From positions 32,001-96,000 of IMG/VR virus record IMGVR_UViG_3300021375_000007: a stretch of 64,000 nt of DNA; one strand, given 5' to 3'. The position numbers and the translations under genes were made by a program. How positions within the stretch are numbered: the stretch's first letter is position 1; each line of letters starts with the position of its first letter. Shown in pieces: positions 5,797 to 33,084 of this stretch. This DNA comes from a virus. The notes beneath the pieces were generated by a model. It ran no database searches. It was not told the DNA's origin and was given only the letters and a program-made list of their open reading frames with translations.

Positions 5797-5835
5797 TAAT
5801 ACTCCTTATAACTTTTATATAAATATGCAGAACAG

Positions 5836-6377: not shown

Positions 6378-6418
6378 TTATGTTTCCTCTTTTATATAAA
6401 TATCTACTTTCCTAATTT

Positions 6419-8197
6419 TTACTCTGGAAAAGCAGCTCCCGTTGGTAAAACATTGAAATCAATAATAATGAATTCTGCTGTCTTGGCTGGTTGCAAGAAT
6501 ATCTGTCCTACTAATTGATTTCTATCAACTACGTCTGGGGTATTATTTGTTTCATCCATTACTACCTTGAATGCATATAAACCTTGACGTTGCTGGATAT
6601 CTTCAAAATAAGGATTGACAATAGAAAGGAATCTGTTTCTAGTTGCGGTCGTATTTTGCTCGAATACCAAGAACTTACTAGATGATGCAACAAATTTCTT
6701 AGATGCGATAAGTAATCTTCGTACATTAATTCTATCCAATGCAGATGATTTTTTCTGTAATGTCTTTTGTCCAAATACTACAACTCCACTGTTAGGAAAA
6801 GTTGCAATAGGATTAACATTACTTTCATAAAGATCATCTCGGTTGGTTTGAGTTAATTTTCTCTCAGCTCGAATCACTGTTTCCAATCCACCTCTGTTAA
6901 GACCTGCTGGTGCAAACCAAGGAGCAGCTACCATATCATTAAATGCATATACTCCTGGAATCAATGTGGTGGCTGGTACCCAAATATTCTGACCTAAATC
7001 ATTATCTGCGATTTGCAACCATGGCCAATACATTGCATTATAGCTTGAATCTTCTGCTTCTGCTTGTGCTTGTGCTGCTGATAATCCTGACCCGTATAAT
7101 ATTGGATCTGATATCATAAAACAATCACCTCTACCTTCTACCATGCTTTCTGCCGTAGATAATATAGCACCGTGATTGGCTGCGCTATTAAGTAATCCTG
7201 GGAATGATATCAAATTAATATCATATTCATCTTGGTTACTTAATAAATTAATAGCATCTGTATAAGCTGTTTTACCTTCATCAGTAACACTTAGATTAAA
7301 TCCTTGCGTATTGGTATTGGTAATGCCATTATAAAATTGCTGTGGATGCTGAACGTTTCCATCTGACCCATTAGCAAATGTTCCTGATACTGCTTGTGGT
7401 AATGAAGCGGAAGCAGCACCTACTCTAACATTTCCATTTGAATCTAAATAATTAAGAGTGGTTTTAAGTACCTCGGCTCTTACATATTTAGACCTTACTG
7501 GGAATGAACCTGATAATTGCAAGAATGGTGAAGTGCCACCGGAATCTCTCATTGTAAATACCTGATCACCAATTCTCCGTGCAATATAATTAGGTGAATT
7601 TGGATCTAATGTAAGATTGTTATATTGTTCAACAATGGTTTTTCTTCTTGAAGTATCATCGCCTCTTCTAATATATAAACTAAATGTACCTAAATTATTA
7701 TTAACATTTGCTACTTCCCATCGTAGGTTATCAACAGAACCGGAAACAAGCATGCTATTTGTTGTTTCATCTGCCGCTATTCCCTCTCCTTCTGACGATG
7801 CTACAGCTTGACCACTATTCATAATAGCGCCATCGGCTAATGTATATAATCTAAATGAATTACCGGCTCCGGATGATGTTACAAAAGAATCAGCAGGAGC
7901 ATACGCACCAGCCATAATTCTTGTCACGGTTAATGTATCAGCATATTTTAAATAGTTTTGTGCTGATATAGATGTTAAATATTTATACGACTTTTCATCT
8001 GCACCAGAACCACTAATGAATACATCTCCAAATATTTGTCTGTATTCATCATACCCAGATACAATTGTTGGTACCATTGCTGGACCTTTTACGGTTGGTC
8101 CTACAACTGCGGCACCAATTGCACCTATTGCGGCTGGTAAAAATGATTGGTCAACTTCCCTGGTAAACACACCAGGACTTACAATTCTTTCGGCCAT
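6419..8197 (-). CDS. Contractile tail sheath protein (gp18-like)
   Basis: SPGVFTREVD N-terminus; WFAPAGLNRG, VNPI, FGQKTL, DRINVRRL, FEQN and PAKTAEFI motifs. Confidence 0.97.
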   Translation of the reverse strand: MAERIVSPGVFTREVDQSFLPAAIGAIGAAVVGPTVKGPAMVPTIVSGYDEYRQIFGDVFISGSGADEKSYKYLTSISAQNYLKYADTLTVTRIMAGAYAPADSFVTSSGAGNSFRLYTLADGAIMNSGQAVASSEGEGIAADETTNSMLVSGSVDNLRWEVANVNNNLGTFSLYIRRGDDTSRRKTIVEQYNNLTLDPNSPNYIARRIGDQVFTMRDSGGTSPFLQLSGSFPVRSKYVRAEVLKTTLNYLDSNGNVRVGAASASLPQAVSGTFANGSDGNVQHPQQFYNGITNTNTQGFNLSVTDEGKTAYTDAINLLSNQDEYDINLISFPGLLNSAANHGAILSTAESMVEGRGDCFMISDPILYGSGLSAAQAQAEAEDSSYNAMYWPWLQIADNDLGQNIWVPATTLIPGVYAFNDMVAAPWFAPAGLNRGGLETVIRAERKLTQTNRDDLYESNVNPIATFPNSGVVVFGQKTLQKKSSALDRINVRRLLIASKKFVASSSKFLVFEQNTTATRNRFLSIVNPYFEDIQQRQGLYAFKVVMDETNNTPDVVDRNQLVGQIFLQPAKTAEFIIIDFNVLPTGAAFPE

Positions 8198-8253
8198 TGA
8201 TTATCCCTTTTATTAAGTTTTTATATAAATATGATATTAATCAGCCAAACAAT

Positions 8254-8550: not shown

Positions 8551-9399
8551 CTATTGATCAAACCGTCGATAAAACGGTAGGAAATTACCATTGGTACCTA
8601 TATCATCTCCATACCCATCAGGCGGCGCTGTAAATTGAGTTTCTGCTAATTTAATCTGCTTGATACCGTATTGCTTTTGCACATTTGATTTATATAATTC
8701 TGTTTCTGGAAAAATAGTGCCTTTCATTGTTACTGGTAATGTAGCTCTTACGGTTCTATCTTCTCCAGTATCATTAGATAATTCATTTGCCACATCTTGT
8801 ACTATACAAGGAAATTTCCAGGTCGTGCCCCATGCAAATCCTCCTAATGGTATTATCTGCTCTAATACTTGATTCATTTGCTCTTGCAACGACGTCCATA
8901 TAAATACATCATAAGATATATCAACAAACTCAGGTATTAGCGTTACATAATATTCTTTGTTAGGCTTTGAATTTGATGTTGCAGAGAATCTATCATATCG
9001 ATGTCTGTTCGTATACTTGCTTTCTAATACTAAATTGTTACCAGCTGGATTTCTATTAACATCTAGCTTTTTCATCGAATCACGCTCGACAATAGAATTA
9101 CGACGGATCATAATAAGAGGGGTCATTGTTTTACCTTTAGCATCTCTCATATATCCATGTGCCTGAACTTGGCTCCATTTTTCTCCATTGGCATACATGA
9201 CTGGTATATCAATAACAGCATCATTTTCTATTATCTTAGGTTTAGCAACATCTCTAAGATAAGTTAATATTGCAAAGTCATGGTCGTATATTGTACATGC
9301 TTGCGTTTTAATTGTATCATCATCTCGCCGGACTTGTTCAGCTCGGTTTGATTTTGGATTATTAGTAAATGATGAATCTGTTCTGTCTAGTTCAGCCAT
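8551..9399 (-). CDS. Tail sheath stabiliser / terminator (gp15-like)
   Basis: IPVMYANGEKW, PLIMIRR and QMNQVLEQI motifs; synteny gp13-gp14-gp15-sheath. Confidence 0.75.
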   Translation of the reverse strand: MAELDRTDSSFTNNPKSNRAEQVRRDDDTIKTQACTIYDHDFAILTYLRDVAKPKIIENDAVIDIPVMYANGEKWSQVQAHGYMRDAKGKTMTPLIMIRRNSIVERDSMKKLDVNRNPAGNNLVLESKYTNRHRYDRFSATSNSKPNKEYYVTLIPEFVDISYDVFIWTSLQEQMNQVLEQIIPLGGFAWGTTWKFPCIVQDVANELSNDTGEDRTVRATLPVTMKGTIFPETELYKSNVQKQYGIKQIKLAETQFTAPPDGYGDDIGTNGNFLPFYRRFDQ

Positions 9400-9953: not shown

Positions 9954-11120
9954 TTACCCTACATATATTCCTAACGGAATTTTATTCATTTGTTGTAACA
10001 TCGCATCCGATTCGGCTTGCTTTCTTTCTAATTGTGCTTGACGTGATAATGAATCTAACGTTTCTTTTAATTCAGTAATCAATTCTTCTTTTTTAGTAAC
10101 AGCGTTAGATATTAAATCAGATCCATTCAATGTGATTTCTGAATTAGGTATCGGTAACGAGCTATACTTGCTTCGAACTAACCCTAATAATTCTTTTGCT
10201 AATTCCAGAGTATATCTACGTATCCAATTTCGGCCTACTTCATTAATAAGATCATAATCCATTCTACCATATGGTATTGTACTATAATCACTTATCAAAG
10301 ACCCGCTTTCTGCATTATACTTTAAAGGATTACCTTTTTCGGAGGTAAGCATATAATTGAAATATACTGTTTCATCTCCAGATGGTATTGGAAACAATCT
10401 TATTTGCTTGTTATTGATATCAAAGCCATATGCTGATTTTCGTATTTGGTCATTGAATTCAATTGCCTGGATTCTTAATACATCTGCATACATCGGCATC
10501 ATCATAAATGATACTCCTGGCGAATAACCACCCCATCCAAATGAATCCATCATTTGCTGACTACCAGCTCCGGTACCTACGAAAGGATCGAAGAATCTAG
10601 TAATGGCTGGTGGTGCCTCATGGAATACTCTTCTTATTTCAAATGAATCTGTATCCGGGGATCCTTGTTCAAATGTTACTGATGAGGTACTTGTTAAATC
10701 ATATACCTGTACTCCATTCTTAACTGCAATGGATGCTGTATAAACATTTACGTTTCCTATAGCACCAGCCTCGGTACCATAATCTTGTGCCAATTCTATA
10801 ATACCTTGAAGATTGGCAGAAACTGCTTTTTGTGTTAATTGCATGGAAGCTGTTGCAGCATATAAATTAAGAAAGTTATCTCTTATATTATATGTATTAA
10901 CATGGCCACCATATTCATTTACAGCTTCTTCAAAACAAGAATAAAACGAGCCAGATGGTAATTCTACATCATTGACCGGATATCCTAATTTTTGAGCACA
11001 CCATTTAACAACATTATCTATATCAGATGCAAAATCAGGTTGAGCATCATAAAAGCCTAACGGCGTTTGGCCAGCGGCAAATGTAGATGAACCATCCCAT
11101 ACGGGTATATTAACAGCCAT
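9954..11120 (-). CDS. Neck protein (gp13-like adaptor)
   Basis: LGYPVNDVEL and WIRRYTLELAKELLGLVRSKY...TLNGSDL motifs; C-terminal IPLGIYVG. Confidence 0.85.
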   Translation of the reverse strand: MAVNIPVWDGSSTFAAGQTPLGFYDAQPDFASDIDNVVKWCAQKLGYPVNDVELPSGSFYSCFEEAVNEYGGHVNTYNIRDNFLNLYAATASMQLTQKAVSANLQGIIELAQDYGTEAGAIGNVNVYTASIAVKNGVQVYDLTSTSSVTFEQGSPDTDSFEIRRVFHEAPPAITRFFDPFVGTGAGSQQMMDSFGWGGYSPGVSFMMMPMYADVLRIQAIEFNDQIRKSAYGFDINNKQIRLFPIPSGDETVYFNYMLTSEKGNPLKYNAESGSLISDYSTIPYGRMDYDLINEVGRNWIRRYTLELAKELLGLVRSKYSSLPIPNSEITLNGSDLISNAVTKKEELITELKETLDSLSRQAQLERKQAESDAMLQQMNKIPLGIYVG

Positions 11121-11183
11121 GAATTACCTTTTTATATAAATATCGAAGGCTACAAGAAAGGATGTGTTATAGTTTAAATGACA

Positions 11184-11756
11184 TTATCTTACCAAACTTA
11201 CTTTACCTACTATTTCTTTATAGTAGTTTTGATAATCTTGATAGCGTATTTTATAAGTATATACAGCTTGTGGGCATAAACGTCCTCGAACTTTTCCATT
11301 CCATCCACCATTAATATTACGAGTAAAATATAATTGTTGCCCCCACCGATTATAGATAGCCATTTCGTAATATTTGATGTTAGTTGCCTTTGCAGTAAAT
11401 ATATCATTATAACCATCATTGTTAGGTGTAAATGAATTAGGAACATAAATAGTGGTAGTATTACATGGCAATGTTTCCATTATCAAATTAACGCTACTTC
11501 CACAATTCAGATCGTTTGTCACCGTAACAGTCAGCTGACCGGTACCTGGTACATCATTCCAATCTACTAGTACATTACCATTATTGTAGTTAACTATTGT
11601 ACCATTGGTAACTTGGTAATTGTATTGATATTGTGAATTGTATGGCACTGTATATTGTACTGGCCTAATGCCATTATAGCATAAAGGTATACGATGGTAG
11701 TATTGTGCTTGTAACGTATTGCAAGCTAGTAATAAGATAATTAAATACTTAATCAT
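11184..11756 (-). CDS. Secreted PKD/Ig-like protein with T9SS type-B (gliding motility-associated, CHU_C) C-terminal domain
   Basis: Signal peptide ending LQA-Q; C-terminus YVPNSFTPNNDGYNDIF...IYNRWGQ...WNGK...VYTYKI...GKVSLVR matches the type-B CTD signature. Confidence 0.9.
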   Translation of the reverse strand: MIKYLIILLLACNTLQAQYYHRIPLCYNGIRPVQYTVPYNSQYQYNYQVTNGTIVNYNNGNVLVDWNDVPGTGQLTVTVTNDLNCGSSVNLIMETLPCNTTTIYVPNSFTPNNDGYNDIFTAKATNIKYYEMAIYNRWGQQLYFTRNINGGWNGKVRGRLCPQAVYTYKIRYQDYQNYYKEIVGKVSLVR

Positions 11757-12090
11757 GCGTTATAGCCCCTGTTACCGGTGTCGCATTAACCGTAACATCG
11801 CATAATACTATATTACCTACACATCCATTAATATCAGTTTCAATTACTTCAACTGCATAATTGCCTGGTATTGTAGCAGACCAATCAACTTGTATCGTAT
11901 TTGTGCCTTGCCCGGCTGCTATATTACCACCTGTAATATTCCATGCGTAAGTTGAGCCTGGCGTGGCAGGTACTGAATAGGCTGTTAAATTAGCATCTGA
12001 TTCACATATGAAATCTGGACATGGTAGATTTTGAGAATAACCTGCTAGCGTCGCTAGACTTAAAAATAATATAACTGCAATCTTTTTCAT
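11749..12090 (-). CDS. Secreted single PKD-like (SprB-type Ig) domain protein
   Basis: Start revised to ATG 12090 (late motif and AAAAGGA upstream); signal peptide ending GYS-Q; YSVP..GSTYAWNITGG.I..GQGTNTIQVDW...GC repeat signature; ends PVTGAITHD. Confidence 0.8.
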   Translation of the reverse strand: MKKIAVILFLSLATLAGYSQNLPCPDFICESDANLTAYSVPATPGSTYAWNITGGNIAAGQGTNTIQVDWSATIPGNYAVEVIETDINGCVGNIVLCDVTVNATPVTGAITHD

Positions 12091-12103
12091 TTGTATCCTT
12101 TTA

Positions 12104-12111
12104 TATAAATA
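12104..12111 (-). promoter_or_regulatory. Late promoter motif inside the secreted-protein cassette
   Basis: Sense GATATTTATATAAAAGGATACAAATG directly before ATG 12090. Confidence 0.7.
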
Positions 12112-12112
12112 T

Positions 12113-12715
12113 CTAGTTATGTGTAATAGCACCTGTTAATACGGGAGGACAGCATTCTATTGTAGCATTAAAAGTTTCATTTGGATCTGCTTGGCAGTCT
12201 AAATTTATCCAACTACCTGTTTCCCCATCAGCATAATTTTCAATTATAATAGATAAATCATCACCATTTGTGTTAGGTGGGCAATCCCCCACAGTAACTT
12301 GAAACTGGAATGTCCAAGGGCCGTTCAACCCATCACCCCAATTATTACCCGGATTACCATCTAATGCACCACCTAAATTAGTATCATAAAACCACCCTGG
12401 GTTATTTATGATTATGCCTGTAGCAGATGATTGTACCATATTAACCCATAACCATACACCTGTTCCTGAGTTATTTGTTGGGAAACCTACAGGAACTAAT
12501 GAGGCAGCATCCCATCCACCACCTAACGCGACTGCAACTCCATGCATCCAATTTACCGATAATCCTTGGTAGTCTACTATAGTATAAGTAAATGTTATTG
12601 TTTGGCCTGGTTGGTATGTTCCTCCTATAGGTGGTATATCAACTGCAATGTTATCATCTAATATACATTGAGAAAATACTTGGAATGGGAATAGCAGTAA
12701 TAATAACCATTTCAT
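12113..12715 (-). CDS. Secreted Trp/Gly/Cys-rich beta protein (adhesin-like domain)
   Basis: Signal peptide ending VFS-Q; DGNPGNNWGD motif; ends PPVLTGAITHN. Confidence 0.75.
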   Translation of the reverse strand: MKWLLLLLFPFQVFSQCILDDNIAVDIPPIGGTYQPGQTITFTYTIVDYQGLSVNWMHGVAVALGGGWDAASLVPVGFPTNNSGTGVWLWVNMVQSSATGIIINNPGWFYDTNLGGALDGNPGNNWGDGLNGPWTFQFQVTVGDCPPNTNGDDLSIIIENYADGETGSWINLDCQADPNETFNATIECCPPVLTGAITHN

Positions 12716-12727
12716 GTGTTATATATT

Positions 12728-12958
12728 TTAGTCTGTTTCATCAGGATCTTTATTCCGTTCAACCCAGTCAAGATATTCCACGGGAGGTATTATTTTATAA
12801 TCCCACCCATCATAAGGATATTCATAACTTTCGTGATCTTCTATAAATAACTCATATGTAGGTGTTTTAATCCAATCAATGGCTACAAACCAATCTTCTT
12901 CTGGGTCGAATACTTGCTTATAAAAAGCTGGCTGTTCTGGTATTGAGAATCTTTCCAT
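12728..12958 (-). CDS. Hypothetical acidic/aromatic protein (possible fibre chaperone)
   Basis: 76 aa ORF directly after the LRR fibre gene; YEYPYDGW motif. Confidence 0.6.
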   Translation of the reverse strand: MERFSIPEQPAFYKQVFDPEEDWFVAIDWIKTPTYELFIEDHESYEYPYDGWDYKIIPPVEYLDWVERNKDPDETD

Positions 12959-12964
12959 ATCTTA

Positions 12965-15094
12965 TTAGTTTACTACTGTCCACCCTTTATTGGTAGCTAT
13001 TGTTGTTGTGCATGTCGATGACCCAGGATTATTTGAAACTGTAACTGTTTTTCCTGACACCGTTGGGAGATCTGTGAATAATTCATCAATCTCAGTTGCT
13101 TCAAAATTACAGCCTGATATTGTAAAAGTAATCGGTATATTTCCTCCTTCAATCCTTCTTAGATTATATGCGTTATAAAAAGTATTGAGCATATTAGTAG
13201 CACTGGACCAATCTATACCACTCATAGTCTGGACGGTAGTGCACTCTCGGACTAGTCCTCTGAAGTTAGTTACGCTGCTTGTGTTACTTAAAAAATTAAG
13301 ATTAATTAAGCCGGTGTTTCGATAAAACATTCTATAGAGAGAATTAGTTGATGAGCAATTAATAGCTTGATAATTAACAATTCCACTAGCTTGAAACATA
13401 AACTGTAATACGGTAGCATTTGATGTATTTAAAGAAGGCATATCTGTTAACTTAGGTGTAGTTGCAAGCATACCGTTATAGTCGGTGGCGTTTGAGCTTA
13501 CAGTTATTGACCCTACAGATGCTAAAGATACACACCCACTAAACATACTATTTGGATCTAATGCATTTGGAGCATTGATATTTCCAACTTTGGTAAGTGA
13601 TATACATGATATAAATAAAGCATCGATATCAGTGGCAAGAGGAAAATTTAAATTTGGAATTTCCATTAAACTATTACAGCTTCTAAATAATACTCTAACG
13701 CTAGTAGCTGCAGAAAAATCAACATTTGGAAATTTTATTAACCTAGTACAGCCATCAAATATGACTCCCATATTTTGAACTCCTGAAGTATCAATTAAAG
13801 GAAATTCTGTAAGTGAACTACAGCCGGCTACGAATGACGTCATTGACGTTGCTGAGCTTATCACCAGGAGAGGAATTTTTGGCAATGAAAAACAATTCTT
13901 ATAAAATGTATTCAATAGTACTATTGAAGTAGCATCGAAAAATGGAGCGTATACCATAGAACTACAACCGCTAAAAAAGCTACTAGCATTTGTGCTACTT
14001 GAAATATTTAAAGTTTTTATTCCTTGTAATGACTGACAATTAATAAAAGTATTAATAGTATCTGTTGCCGTAGAGACAGAATATTCATTTAACCATTTTA
14101 AGTTTGAGCAGCCATTGAATACATTTCTTGCTTGCCCAGTTGCACTATTAGCTATGAATGATCCGTTATTAAGTTCTATAAGAGAAGAGCAGAAGCCAAA
14201 AGTATAAAGTAAAGTAGTAACAGAACTAACATCTATTTGAATTTTTTCTAAAGCAGTACAACCTCGAAATGTGTTAGACATATTGGTAATTGAATGAGAA
14301 CCTTCCCAAATGAATTGTTCTAACATTCTATGCTGAATATTCTGGGCGTAAAAAGTAAAACTAGTACAATTAACAGCTTGTACTAATACATCCAACCATC
14401 CTGTAGTTCTATTAGTTGACGAAACCGAACTGTGTCTTTGGTTAAAATCAATTAGGGTCAAATTAGATCCCACCTGAGGGTAAACTTTTACAATTGATTG
14501 CTTATAACCCAAATTAGTCAAATTACTGGCTGCTGAATAAGAAAAATCATGCTCAGCAGTTACACCTGATGCATAATTTACTACATTGCCATCTCCCCAA
14601 TCTACAGTATAATCTCCCTGGGCTTCCAATGCTACATAATTATGTTCTACATCAAAAACGGCATAAAGACCATATACAACCTGTTCATTTACGATAAGTG
14701 TAGGTAGATTAACCCATTGAGAGTTTCGTGTATAAGAATCGAGTATAGGAATAGCAAATATATTTTTTTCAGTGACAGTGTATGCACTTAATATAGGTGA
14801 GGATGAATCTTCAACATATCCGCCTATATTGATACTTCCTATAAAATCACATTCTAATGCATAACTAGACGATCCCGTTTGGTGAGTATAAGTCCCATTG
14901 GGAGTCTGTATAGTATAAATATACGTATAAGGTCCAGTACCTCCTGTAGCCGTAAGACTTAGATATATTGTATTCCCAAATGTGGTTTCCGTGATAGGAG
15001 TAGTAAGCCCGGCATCAGAAAATATACCTACTTCTAATCCGATTCCACCACCACCACCACCAGAGGTTTTAATATTAATATATTGTTGTATCAT
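12965..15094 (-). CDS. BspA/DUF285-type leucine-rich-repeat protein, candidate receptor-binding protein
   Basis: More than a dozen repeats of about 22-25 aa of the form (T)S.V...MF.GC.SL; PKD-like YTVDWGDG; C-terminal NPG...IATNKGWTV cap. Confidence 0.8.
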   Translation of the reverse strand: MIQQYINIKTSGGGGGGIGLEVGIFSDAGLTTPITETTFGNTIYLSLTATGGTGPYTYIYTIQTPNGTYTHQTGSSSYALECDFIGSINIGGYVEDSSSPILSAYTVTEKNIFAIPILDSYTRNSQWVNLPTLIVNEQVVYGLYAVFDVEHNYVALEAQGDYTVDWGDGNVVNYASGVTAEHDFSYSAASNLTNLGYKQSIVKVYPQVGSNLTLIDFNQRHSSVSSTNRTTGWLDVLVQAVNCTSFTFYAQNIQHRMLEQFIWEGSHSITNMSNTFRGCTALEKIQIDVSSVTTLLYTFGFCSSLIELNNGSFIANSATGQARNVFNGCSNLKWLNEYSVSTATDTINTFINCQSLQGIKTLNISSSTNASSFFSGCSSMVYAPFFDATSIVLLNTFYKNCFSLPKIPLLVISSATSMTSFVAGCSSLTEFPLIDTSGVQNMGVIFDGCTRLIKFPNVDFSAATSVRVLFRSCNSLMEIPNLNFPLATDIDALFISCISLTKVGNINAPNALDPNSMFSGCVSLASVGSITVSSNATDYNGMLATTPKLTDMPSLNTSNATVLQFMFQASGIVNYQAINCSSTNSLYRMFYRNTGLINLNFLSNTSSVTNFRGLVRECTTVQTMSGIDWSSATNMLNTFYNAYNLRRIEGGNIPITFTISGCNFEATEIDELFTDLPTVSGKTVTVSNNPGSSTCTTTIATNKGWTVVN

Positions 15095-27060: not shown

Positions 27061-27087
27061 TATCTCGTTGTTTTATATAAATATTAA

Positions 27088-30663: not shown

Positions 30664-33084
30664 TTACCGAGAATAACGAAATAGGCCTAATAGTTGATTT
30701 ACTGGTGCAAATGCGCCTGTATATTTGTAGGTCTTTCCTTTATATACAAATACTATGCCTTCTGATGGTACTATTTTATCAAAACCACCTAATCGTTCTA
30801 TTCTCTGTAATTGAATTTGTAATTTATTTAATGCTTCAAGATCATTTGAATCTTTAACAGCCTTTATTGCTTGTGCTACATCTTTCCTTAGGCTCTTAAC
30901 AGAATCCGCAGGATTAACTGCTAGATAATTAGTAATGTTACGCATTACATCGGCTCCTAACTCTAAAAAGATTTCTTCAAACTTTTTAATATTCTTTTTA
31001 CCTAAGGCCACTGATTGTGTTTTATCAATTTCTTTAGCCTTAGCTAATACAGCAGCATCAGGTATATTTTTTCCATTTAGCCTAAATGATTTATCACCCA
31101 ATGCCCATCGCCTCGTTAATCCATCTTTTACTTCTGGGGAGGCTTCTGGTATATTCTCATTAATGAATTTGGTCCACCATTCTTCATGATATTCAGATAC
31201 TTCTGCCTTATCCGGCAAACCAAACTCTTTTTGAATCTTATTTATCTTGCTAATATAATAAGGTACCTTTTCATCAAATTCAATATCCTTTTGCATTTGA
31301 ATTACATTTGGTGGTATAATCTTAAAATGCTCCTGTGTATCTGCATTTACTTTAGCAATTATCTTTTGAAGCTTATCACCCTGGTCTGGATATGATTTAA
31401 CTTTTTTACCAGTCTCATCAAATTCATCTAACCCATGGAATTGCAGATATGCAGCAGGTCCATATGATATAACATTTTGAGTGGCCGGATATATAATTTC
31501 CAAATTAACAAATCTACGACCATTCTGAAATAATTTAGTTCGTTGAGCTTCTGGTATTGCTAAAATAGCCTTTTCTAGATCTTCCATGGCATAAACAAAT
31601 GCTTTTTCAATATCTCCCCTGCCTTCAAATTTTTGAGCAATATCATCAATACTCATTGGATTGATAACTGTTGATTTATTTCTAGCAGCACCGACTTGAC
31701 CGTCTTTAAACGTAACTTGCAAATTCTGGCCATCCGTCTTTTCAGATACAGCTGATTCTAAATCTAATTCACCTGCCAATGACCGTCTTACTAATTCTTT
31801 AAGATCTTCAAAAGTTAAATCATTATCATCAAATGGATGTGCCATATGGCCTGCTGCTCCGCCTTCTGTTAATAATTTAGATTCTTTAAGAATTGATTTG
31901 AATTGCATGTTCCACCATTCTTTACTAGTTACAGATTCATCCATTGCTATTGGGTCCTTGCTAATTGTTTTAGGTGTTGCCTTAAGTACACTGGTAGGCT
32001 CTTTGATACTCGATTCAATAGAATCTTCGGCACCTAAGAAATTTAAAAATTTATATCCTACTTGCTGAGCTACATTATTAATATATGATTTCCATTTATT
32101 ATATGCAGGCTTACCTTTTAATTCTTTGAAATAATTTGTTCCTGAATCTACTGCACCGTCAATACCTACCGGAAAGAATGATACCGCCGGTACAGGTCCG
32201 CCTGGAAATTTAGTATCATATTTTGGTAGTTCTTTGTTTCCGTTAAGATAATTTATAACGGTATATCCTAACCTTTTTGCAATTTTTGCTGTACTAGCTT
32301 CATATGATTTATTATTACCATAAAAATATCTCGGACCATCATCCACATCTTGATCGGCTGGTGCTGTAGATGATGCTTCGTTTAATATTGATTTGATATC
32401 ATATGACTCTATAAAACGTTCTATTTGCTCGGCTTGGGATGCATCTGATGCAAGTACCTTCTGGACCATCCCGTAGACCTTAGGATCACTTATACCGGTT
32501 ATATCCTTGAAGCTTTTTTCATCTGCTGTCGCAAGCACTTGTCGCAATGCAGTACCACTCATCTCTCCATCATATCCAGGAATATCAATTTCAACATGAG
32601 GAGCTACGATTACATATCCATGCGTCGCCAATCCTTTCATTTCTTCGCCTTTCTTGTAAGGTTGGAAATATCCAGGGCTACCATCTTTTTTGGTATATGA
32701 TAATCTACCAGCATCCTTTTTACCATACATGATAAGTAATGCTGTAGTATCAGGATCAAATTGGTCCGTGATTTCAACTGGTCTATATGGATTAGTTTTT
32801 ACTACTTGCCCTGCAGGTACTCCCATGGCTGATATAATTGATTTTTTTTGATCAAATGTAAATGGTGATTTATCTTTTAGCTTACCTTTACTATCCATGT
32901 TATCAGCTGTTGCAATAAAAGTATTTTCTTTGCCAAATTGCTTTGCTAACCAATCATATGCTTCTTTATGATGCTTACCGAAAGGTTGGAACCTTCCGGG
33001 GTAGATTGCAATTACTTTATCAATACCATTATCTTCAGTGATAATGCGTTCTGCTAACCAAGTACCTAAATCCATCTTATCCAT
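30664..33084 (-). CDS. Multidomain protein: cytidylyltransferase-like (HIGH-superfamily) domain plus ATP-dependent ligase-like nucleotidyltransferase domain
   Basis: N-terminal IYPGRFQPFGKHH and MSGTALR; C-terminal SEKTDGQN (KxDG), EII, EGIVF and terminal YKYTG motifs. Confidence 0.7.
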   Translation of the reverse strand: MDKMDLGTWLAERIITEDNGIDKVIAIYPGRFQPFGKHHKEAYDWLAKQFGKENTFIATADNMDSKGKLKDKSPFTFDQKKSIISAMGVPAGQVVKTNPYRPVEITDQFDPDTTALLIMYGKKDAGRLSYTKKDGSPGYFQPYKKGEEMKGLATHGYVIVAPHVEIDIPGYDGEMSGTALRQVLATADEKSFKDITGISDPKVYGMVQKVLASDASQAEQIERFIESYDIKSILNEASSTAPADQDVDDGPRYFYGNNKSYEASTAKIAKRLGYTVINYLNGNKELPKYDTKFPGGPVPAVSFFPVGIDGAVDSGTNYFKELKGKPAYNKWKSYINNVAQQVGYKFLNFLGAEDSIESSIKEPTSVLKATPKTISKDPIAMDESVTSKEWWNMQFKSILKESKLLTEGGAAGHMAHPFDDNDLTFEDLKELVRRSLAGELDLESAVSEKTDGQNLQVTFKDGQVGAARNKSTVINPMSIDDIAQKFEGRGDIEKAFVYAMEDLEKAILAIPEAQRTKLFQNGRRFVNLEIIYPATQNVISYGPAAYLQFHGLDEFDETGKKVKSYPDQGDKLQKIIAKVNADTQEHFKIIPPNVIQMQKDIEFDEKVPYYISKINKIQKEFGLPDKAEVSEYHEEWWTKFINENIPEASPEVKDGLTRRWALGDKSFRLNGKNIPDAAVLAKAKEIDKTQSVALGKKNIKKFEEIFLELGADVMRNITNYLAVNPADSVKSLRKDVAQAIKAVKDSNDLEALNKLQIQLQRIERLGGFDKIVPSEGIVFVYKGKTYKYTGAFAPVNQLLGLFRYSR

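Follow-up and report, generated by a model that had tools for sequence, protein, structure and literature searches.

Three exported proteins and their domains

In the 64,000-nucleotide (nt) stretch of viral DNA analyzed here (positions 32,001 to 96,000 of IMG/VR record IMGVR_UViG_3300021375_000007; referred to below as the window), three consecutive minus-strand genes, designated A, B, and C, encode small exported proteins, the last of which carries a type IX secretion system (T9SS) sorting domain. The window is part of a 153-kb virus record containing 486 open reading frames (ORFs), and the DNA runs bearing the stretch were marine. A, B, and C are not fused: every one of the three ORFs has a signal peptide and a stop codon of its own, an arrangement kept in at least nine loci; B and C overlap by 8 nt. 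A GTG codon is also open upstream of B, at 12132, yet the ATG at 12090 agrees with all homologs. The genes and the features within them are listed in Table 1.

Signal peptides were called by eye from the sequence. The N-termini read MKWLLLLLFPFQVFS followed by QC in A, MKKIAVILFLSLATLAGYS followed by QN in B, and MIKYLIILLLACNTLQA followed by QY in C, with cleavage expected before Gln in each; by this reading, C has the N-terminal Sec signal peptide of T9SS cargo. Gln at position +1 follows the general Q-rule for signal peptidase I substrates of Bacteroidetes (PMC5837995) and places the host in the Bacteroidota, without being specific to the cassette. No lipobox was found in A, B, or C, and a lipoprotein signal on A was ruled out, Cys17 being part of the A domain and present also in the single-chain proteins described below.

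C scored above the curated cutoffs of two families of the type-B C-terminal sorting domain (CTD) that marks T9SS cargo, TIGR04131 (60.2 bits; cutoff, 35; E = 1.6e-16) and CHU_C (56.6 bits; cutoff, 27; E = 2.8e-15), and was the sole CHU_C match in the 153-kb record. In the alignment of the C family, Q-[YF]-x-[HDQ]-x-[IL]-x-x-C was conserved at the N-terminus and C26, C85, and C98 were invariant. B matched PKD_6 (PF19408; 30.7 bits; cutoff, 25; E = 4e-7), and its AlphaFold2 (AF2) monomer model (predicted local distance difference test [pLDDT], 79) had an Ig core at residues 30 to 101. Structural matches of this model were to PKD, FN3, and Ig domains (Z, 6.7 to 8.0), including the PKD1 domain of PrtV (4l9d; 76 of 82 residues aligned; root-mean-square deviation [rmsd], 2.3; Z, 7.2), and the profile score and the Ig/PKD fold together assign B to the PKD_6 family. 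All but one of the 21 homologs of B were 113 to 114 amino acids (aa) long. Comparison of the B family with the Ig part of the C family by hhalign gave a probability of 96.9% (E = 1.6e-10). These results bear out the preliminary description of the locus, which had placed the three genes at these positions, each with a signal peptide followed by Gln, had regarded the Ig domains of B and C as homologous, and had assigned C a type-B CTD.

A matched no family in Pfam, NCBIfam, or PHROG. It had 32 close homologs of about 200 aa, and a search with the A-family profile returned 845 representative clusters, mostly of domains within proteins of 400 to 3800 aa; a type-B CTD-like ending (GxVTLxR) was present in 69 of the 140 top matches. 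The 80 best cellular A-domain loci, which were from Saprospiraceae, Lewinellaceae, Chitinophagales, Sphingobacteriales, and Flavobacteriales, each held a long single chain or a frame ending at a contig edge, and the C-terminal tail considered in the next section was absent from all of them. The shortest cellular chains (604 to 607 aa; L047, L050, and L066) consisted of a signal peptide, Gln, the A domain, three SprB-type repeats, an Ig domain, and a type-B CTD. Fold searches with the A domain gave generic beta-sandwich matches alone (pilin domains, cohesin, DUF4466, and CLIPPER; Z, about 8), so that no function could be inferred from them.

No cellular small anchor resembling C was present among the best 150 C-profile matches listed for 301 Flavobacteriales genomes, which lie in long frames, and the three short frames that were fetched all ended at contig edges. 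Fused, longer forms of the C Ig domain were not found, which is weak evidence. Five Cys residues of A (17, 145, 174, 188, and 189) are nearly invariant; with the three invariant Cys residues of the C Ig part, the odd numbers in these exported proteins suggest a free thiol or an intersubunit disulfide. In L009, B has Phe in place of the Cys24 of other B proteins.

Table 1. Features of the cassette, in window coordinates
Feature	Position	Strand	Description
Gene A, exported tip	12113..12715	-	200 aa, ORF; beta-sandwich domain, no CTD
Signal peptide of A, aa 1-15	12671..12715	-	Called by eye; cleavage expected before Gln16
Tail of A, PPVLTGAITHN	12116..12148	-	11 residues from CC motif to stop codon
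Promoter-like 12-mer ATTTATATAAAA	12099..12110	-	8 nt upstream of B ATG; candidate, from recurrence
Gene B, exported stalk	11749..12090	-	113 aa, single PKD_6 Ig domain, no CTD
Signal peptide of B, aa 1-19	12034..12090	-	From sequence and helix 2-20 in AF2 model; cleavage expected before Gln20
Tail of B, TPVTGAITHD	11752..11781	-	Extreme C-terminus
Gene C, anchor/carrier	11184..11756	-	190 aa: signal peptide, one Ig domain, type-B T9SS CTD
Ig domain of C, aa 18-101	11454..11705	-	Homologous to B; mature N-terminus QYYHRIPLC
Type-B C-terminal sorting domain of C, aa 104-190	11187..11447	-	TIGR04131, CHU_C (PF13585)

Conservation and origin of the C-terminal tail

Outside the signal peptide, A shows no relationship to B (hhalign probability, 4.7%), yet TGAITH stands at the extreme C-terminus of both, as had been described. 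Endings of the form [ILV]xH[NDEQY] were found in A and B only, i.e., in 2 of the 486 ORFs of the 153-kb record. Close homologs of A that reach the C-terminus all end in CC-P-x-h-T-x-x-I-x-H-[N/E/Y], with I and H invariant, and TGxITHD was invariant in 17 homologs of B, down to 61% identity. Among loci, the tail codons varied synonymously (ACA/ACT/ACC, GGG/GGA/GGT/GGC, CAT/CAC, and GAT/GAC) and the residues were constant. Since the residues remain invariant while the codons change, the tail is maintained by purifying selection.

The single-chain relatives of A indicated where the tail came from. In these proteins, the CC motif is followed by x-x-P-h-h-T-x-T-N-P-S and then by the next domain's first Cys. 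The CC-to-Cys distance amounted to 11 residues in 67 of 108 cases, and in phage A the stop codon comes exactly 11 residues after CC. In the AF2 model of the single-chain homolog P0054 (pLDDT, 84.6), the segment after CC formed a strand (E199-204; pLDDT, about 91). The domain border was located at 196/197, with Ig and FN3 domains aligning from 196/197 to 275-282 and A-domain matches ending at 193-197. The next linker strand, whose own domain was truncated, fell to a pLDDT of 55 to 62. On the basis of the P0054 strand and the alignment borders, the segment equivalent to the tail is, in the model, the first strand of the following Ig domain, and the earlier likening of the tail to the first strand of an Ig repeat thus held. 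In the B model, the tail was a coil outside the fold (pLDDT, 60 to 67). The tail is therefore a conserved terminal extension that is free in the monomer model of B and homologous to a strand, as are the joining extensions of donor-strand fibers.

A tail of this kind is also the exact stub expected from a single-chain gene cut at a domain border, and it could be a leftover of gene fission, the three proteins acting apart, with A and B in the periplasm and no assembly. A stub would decay, however, yet I-x-H-[ND] is invariant under synonymous change; furthermore, the tail is unlike the single-chain linker consensus T-N-P-S-C and recurs on unrelated proteins of distant phages. We regard a mere leftover as very improbable.

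Several other origins of the ending were considered and dropped. An intein-like HN ending was set aside because a Hint domain is lacking and the Asn is the last residue. A SpyTag-like Lys-Asn/Asp isopeptide was set aside because Lys is absent from mature B and from the Ig part of C, and an A-B frameshift fusion was set aside because the B frame is open back to 12132 only through its overlap with the conserved tail.

In L002 (4783-5280), the A homolog is shortened to 165 aa and is tail-less, with B and C remaining intact; P0022, a close relative of full length, ends in ILHY. In addition, residues 197-276 of P0054, the SprB-type repeat after the A domain, superposed best on the T9SS CTD of RgpB (5ag9; Z, 10.0; rmsd, 1.6 over 65 residues) and also matched the CTD of RemA (8gl6; Z, 8.3), a modeled resemblance that hints at a fold common to adhesin repeats and CTDs.

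Recurrence, genomic setting, and arrangement of the pieces

The three genes co-occurred at two genome positions. The first, between fiber and neck genes, was occupied in this window and in L009, with the B-C pair also present in L003-L005; the second, between DNA polymerase and UvsX genes, was occupied in L002 and L010-L012, where one or two unrelated small genes lie between A and B-C. A scan with the C family identified other phage lineages. L006 and L109 encode a 185-aa two-Ig protein ending in LGLIEHN, a 185-aa anchor, and a 464-aa PKD-domain protein ending in LSQINHN. L124 and L131 encode a 349- or 262-aa tip (GPISHN or GPINHN), a 188-aa stalk (PIQHN or PISHN), and a 189- to 190-aa anchor, and L118 encodes a stalk and an anchor, with one tail-bearing protein beside the anchor. 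The stalks of L118, L124, and L131 begin with QLTTTNPDTVC, of which LTTTNPD is the first strand in P0054. The cassette in this window is a marine one with an A-domain tip and a single-Ig stalk ending in ITHD. In three of the four lineages, the genes (tip, stalk, anchor) are arranged as the domains of the single-chain relatives are; L006/L109 is the exception, with the tip gene after the anchor.

All 13 small Ig-plus-CTD anchor loci with readable flanks (this window's family being counted) had tail-bearing neighbors, versus none of 11 distinct phage loci that encode a large CTD protein as a single chain (505 to 1547 aa). Fisher's exact test gave p = 4e-7, a value that overstates independence because the 13-versus-0 loci represent about four lineages and not 24 independent events; the background of such endings was 1 in 1886 ORFs. 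The preliminary description had suggested looking for co-occurrence of the tail motif with type-B CTD genes and porP/sprF genes. The tie to small type-B CTD anchor genes proved to be tight. No porP/sprF gene was found in the phage: PorP/SprF (PF11751) had no match in the 153-kb record, and the same search gave 15 and 17 matches in two Bacteroidota control genomes.

The same coupling bears on the possibility that the tail joins nothing and is instead a signal for sorting or processing that some host factor recognizes, such as a C-terminal-peptide reader or an unknown T9SS targeting branch. The strictly free C-terminal position, the invariant His, and the polar last residue are as in other C-terminal signals, and the tail is also found on CTD-less proteins of 1367 to 2110 aa (P0100, P0106, P0107, and P0108). 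A signal of this type would leave unexplained why tail genes always lie by a minimal Ig-plus-CTD gene and never by complete CTD proteins, and also why the tail descends from an inter-domain strand; in addition, we know of no candidate reader. This possibility is accordingly improbable.

In the DNA polymerase/UvsX clade, the A tails are ILHN and IFHN, the B tails are ITHD, and the N-terminus of B is changed from PCPDF to PCPHF. The differing tails and the changed N-terminus suggest that docking would be ordered, A to B and B to C, rather than promiscuous, the differences amounting to a single evolutionary event. In a different, hub-like arrangement, each tail-bearing protein would attach alone to one receptor (the Ig domain or CTD of C, the host T9SS, or a shuttle protein), and A:C and B:C pairs would be displayed. 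In this window, the tails of A and B are near-identical (TGAITH), and one socket could take both; the N-termini of B (QNLPCPDFIC) and C (QYYHRIPLC) differ and may not be equivalent sockets; and L118 has just one tail-bearing protein beside its anchor. However, the tip-stalk-anchor gene order mirrors the single-chain domain order in every lineage except L006/L109, the A tails of the DNA polymerase/UvsX clade are consistently unlike the B tails, suggesting two sockets, and a lone Ig stalk would be an odd cargo. Independent docking on a single receptor is thus unlikely in our estimation.

Similar endings were observed on very large proteins. P0100 (2108 aa), P0106, P0107, and P0108, the CTD-less giants mentioned above, are adhesin-like, with CUB and A domains, and have the endings ..PIYHD, ..GIYHD, ..PLYHD, and ..GIFHD; P0100 is on a 546-kb contig. 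A scan of viral contigs with P0100 returned nothing, and a scan of metagenomes returned only CTD-bearing bacterial relatives of 4200 to 4400 aa (L014 and L017) and a 1.5-kb fragment ending in ..SPLYHD. The tag may also serve very large cargo, possibly outside phages. In addition, secreted proteins ending in ...RLIKIK, ...VKIEIK, or ...IKIEIR were encoded in L109 (3147-3884), L118 (726-3176), and L124 (788-3247); these endings resemble type-A T9SS tails, and the 245-aa protein among them had no Pfam match.

The flanking genes agree with the placement of the cassette between fiber and neck genes that had been proposed. Downstream are neck/adaptor, collar-like, and gp15-like genes, and upstream are a 76-aa ORF and a fiber-like gene with DUF285 repeats; T4-like structural genes in the record include those for the sheath (6419-8197), a gp15-like protein (8551-9399), and the neck/adaptor (9954-11120). 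The fiber-like gene (12965-15094, minus strand) encodes 709 aa with six DUF285 (BspA-type leucine-rich) repeats, and its product also matches the large unannotated PHROGs phrog_9915 and phrog_22899. The acidic 76-aa ORF (12728-12958, minus strand), between the DUF285 gene and A, matched no family, and an 87-aa counterpart is at the same site in L001. Contigs from two RNA libraries were identical to the window at 12726-12917 and 12650-12800, spanning the 76-aa ORF; together with diverged pieces of A and B, they hint at transcription and do not prove it. The cassette region had no blastn match in deposited phage genomes. At the second genome position, the UvsX/RecA-like gene downstream of the cassette (L002, 7022-7978; L011, 7446-10076) looks intein-interrupted, with ...GGGCLTPGSLVLMSDN after the ATPase core and the intein-like C-terminal motif ...NGVIHHN in the downstream ORF.

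The 12-mer ATTTATATAAAA occurred six times without mismatch in the window, on the minus strand in every case (5813-5824, 6390-6401, 8219-8230, 11130-11141, 12099-12110, and 27071-27082). Each copy lies shortly ahead of an ATG, at 8 to 23 nt for several structural genes; B and the genes for the neck/adaptor and the sheath are among those preceded by it. Allowing one mismatch gave 12 hits versus 5.3 expected from shuffles. The motif may serve this phage group as a late promoter or leader element and was not conserved in the DNA polymerase/UvsX context. The preliminary description had assigned a late promoter to B alone, as expected of a high-copy shaft. Because C overlaps B by 8 nt, ATTTATATAAAA would transcribe C with B; a motif that also serves C and is absent at other loci does not mark B as a high-copy shaft.

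That expectation belonged to a wider proposal, in which B polymerizes head to tail as a donor-strand filament, the tail of each B serving as the first strand of the next, with A as the cap and C as the anchor. In favor of this proposal, B combines an Ig domain with a tail that has first-strand homology and no structure in the B monomer model, and the A and B tails are similar in this window. The premise that mature B and C lack a first strand was not supported by the B model, however, with which whole PKD and FN3 domains aligned over residues 22-104, no strand being missing in it, although residues 21-30 were a low-confidence coil (pLDDT, 61 to 64). Also against it are the 9 residues in B and 8 in C that stand ahead of the first conserved Cys and the related stalks that start with first-strand sequence. 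Furthermore, the number of domains is fixed in the single-chain relatives, which, with the gene order, argue for single copies of the tip, stalk, and anchor rather than (B)n, and the A and B tails differ in the DNA polymerase/UvsX clade. No chaperone, usher, or maturation protease was matched in the cassette (Pfam, NCBIfam, and PHROG), the promoter-like motif would serve C as well as B and is not conserved, and there was no indication of homopolymerization. The complete monomer fold and the disordered tail of the B model, the outcome that the preliminary description had named as refuting it, thus speak against the filament, which we judge to be improbable; docking in trans is still compatible with a monomer model.

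Proposed assembly, export, and relation to known systems

Our preferred explanation, to which we assign a probability of roughly 55%, is that the cassette is a type-B CTD adhesin split into three exported proteins that are docked through their tails and carried out on the CTD of C. It builds on the observed domain identities, the conservation of the tag, its homology to the inter-domain strand, and the coupling of tag genes to small CTD anchors. A would be a variable tip, B an Ig stalk, and C a minimal Ig-plus-CTD anchor. The tag of A and B, P-x-h-h-T-G-x-I-x-H-[N/D]-COOH, would be derived from the linker and first strand between consecutive Ig domains of the single-chain relatives and would substitute for the peptide bond to the next module; the I-x-His-Asn/Asp tail probably hooks A and B on. 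After export into the periplasm, each tag would dock on the following protein at its N-terminal Ig region (A on B and B on C), probably by beta-strand addition. The folded complex would then be taken across the outer membrane by the host T9SS, using the one CTD of C, and stay on the surface of the infected cell, bound to a PorP/SprF-like shuttle of the host. The earlier picture of a T9SS-linked tip, stalk, and anchor, in effect an SprB-like adhesin in pieces, is upheld by the domain order of the single-chain relatives and by the tail homology.

Two features of this route follow from what the phage lacks. T9SS cargo requires a CTD (PMC12618676), and A and B have none, so their arrival at the surface would need riding on C. 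The phage likewise has no PorP/SprF gene, and C would therefore need a host shuttle. A cognate shuttle gene commonly, although not universally, lies beside the gene for type-B cargo, and C has no such neighbor. In Flavobacterium johnsoniae, orphan type-B cargo uses shared shuttles (PMC12618676), and the missing gene thus does not exclude C as T9SS cargo. Type-B cargo is anchored to PorP-like proteins at the surface (PMC9143113).

Several points weigh against this explanation, in addition to the small number of lineages behind the coupling. The case for docking comes from genomics. B models as a complete Ig fold with no obvious need of an extra strand, and the related stalks retain their own first-strand sequence. 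When the tail was joined to B residues 25-88, the PKD_6 match of the chimera extended to profile position 5, and the Pfam score was 35.8 bits versus 33.5 bits with the tail reversed, a gain of only 2.3 bits. Expression evidence consists of the short RNA-library contigs. Moreover, to our knowledge, no CTD-less protein has been reported to exit through the T9SS on the CTD of another protein.

A broader proposal, which we make tentatively and hold at somewhat less than even odds, is that I-x-His-Asn/Asp-COOH is a new portable docking tag with which CTD-less folded proteins ride the T9SS on a minimal Ig-CTD carrier, phages using it as a kit of interchangeable tips for the infected cell's surface. 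The literature searched contained no paper on strand-tag assembly or piggyback export in the T9SS, nor on such a cassette. If true, this would be the first piggyback export via the T9SS and a new mode of adhesin assembly; the rule that T9SS cargo needs its own CTD would change, one small carrier moving several tagged partners, and a short (7-residue) tag would be available for surface display in Bacteroidota. Lytic marine phages would be putting late-region genes into rebuilding of the host surface, which bears on superinfection exclusion, particle aggregation, and phage-host recognition in flavobacteria-like hosts. Surface remodeling, adhesion, and superinfection exclusion are candidate benefits to the phage.

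The nearest known systems are the single-chain type-B CTD adhesins of the SprB/RemA type in F. johnsoniae, represented here by the 604- to 607-aa chains and by chains of 1000 to 3800 aa from Saprospiraceae, Lewinellaceae, and Flavobacteriales. Like the cassette, they combine, in the same order, the A domain, Ig or SprB-type repeats, and a type-B CTD; they are Sec exported, have Gln at +1, and would be expected to rely on the T9SS and a PorP/SprF-like shuttle (PMC9143113 and PMC12618676). They differ in being one polypeptide that holds all domains and the CTD, usually with a shuttle gene near; the cassette comprises three polypeptides, two of them CTD-less with an I-x-H-[ND] C-terminal tag, and no phage shuttle gene.

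Donor-strand fibers (chaperone-usher pili; type V FimA/Mfa1 pili of Bacteroidota, which have C-terminal donor strands; and archaeal threads and cannulae) resemble the cassette in that a terminal strand-like extension, proposed in the cassette, joins Ig-like subunits and in their tip/shaft/anchor layout (PMC5954841, PMC8512630, and 10.1101/2022.04.26.489512). Unlike these fibers, the cassette gives no indication of an incomplete acceptor fold in the B model and has no chaperone, usher, or lipoprotein-protease maturation, and its anchor is a T9SS CTD. Phage-encoded T9SS cargo is known from the type-A CTD enzymes of 'Cryophage' (Bellas et al. 2020; PMC7468147), which likewise are phage gene products with a T9SS sorting domain, presumably using host secretion to alter the surface of the infected cell. 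The Cryophage enzymes are ordinary single proteins with type-A CTDs, whereas the cassette has a type-B CTD on a minimal carrier together with separate tagged partners.

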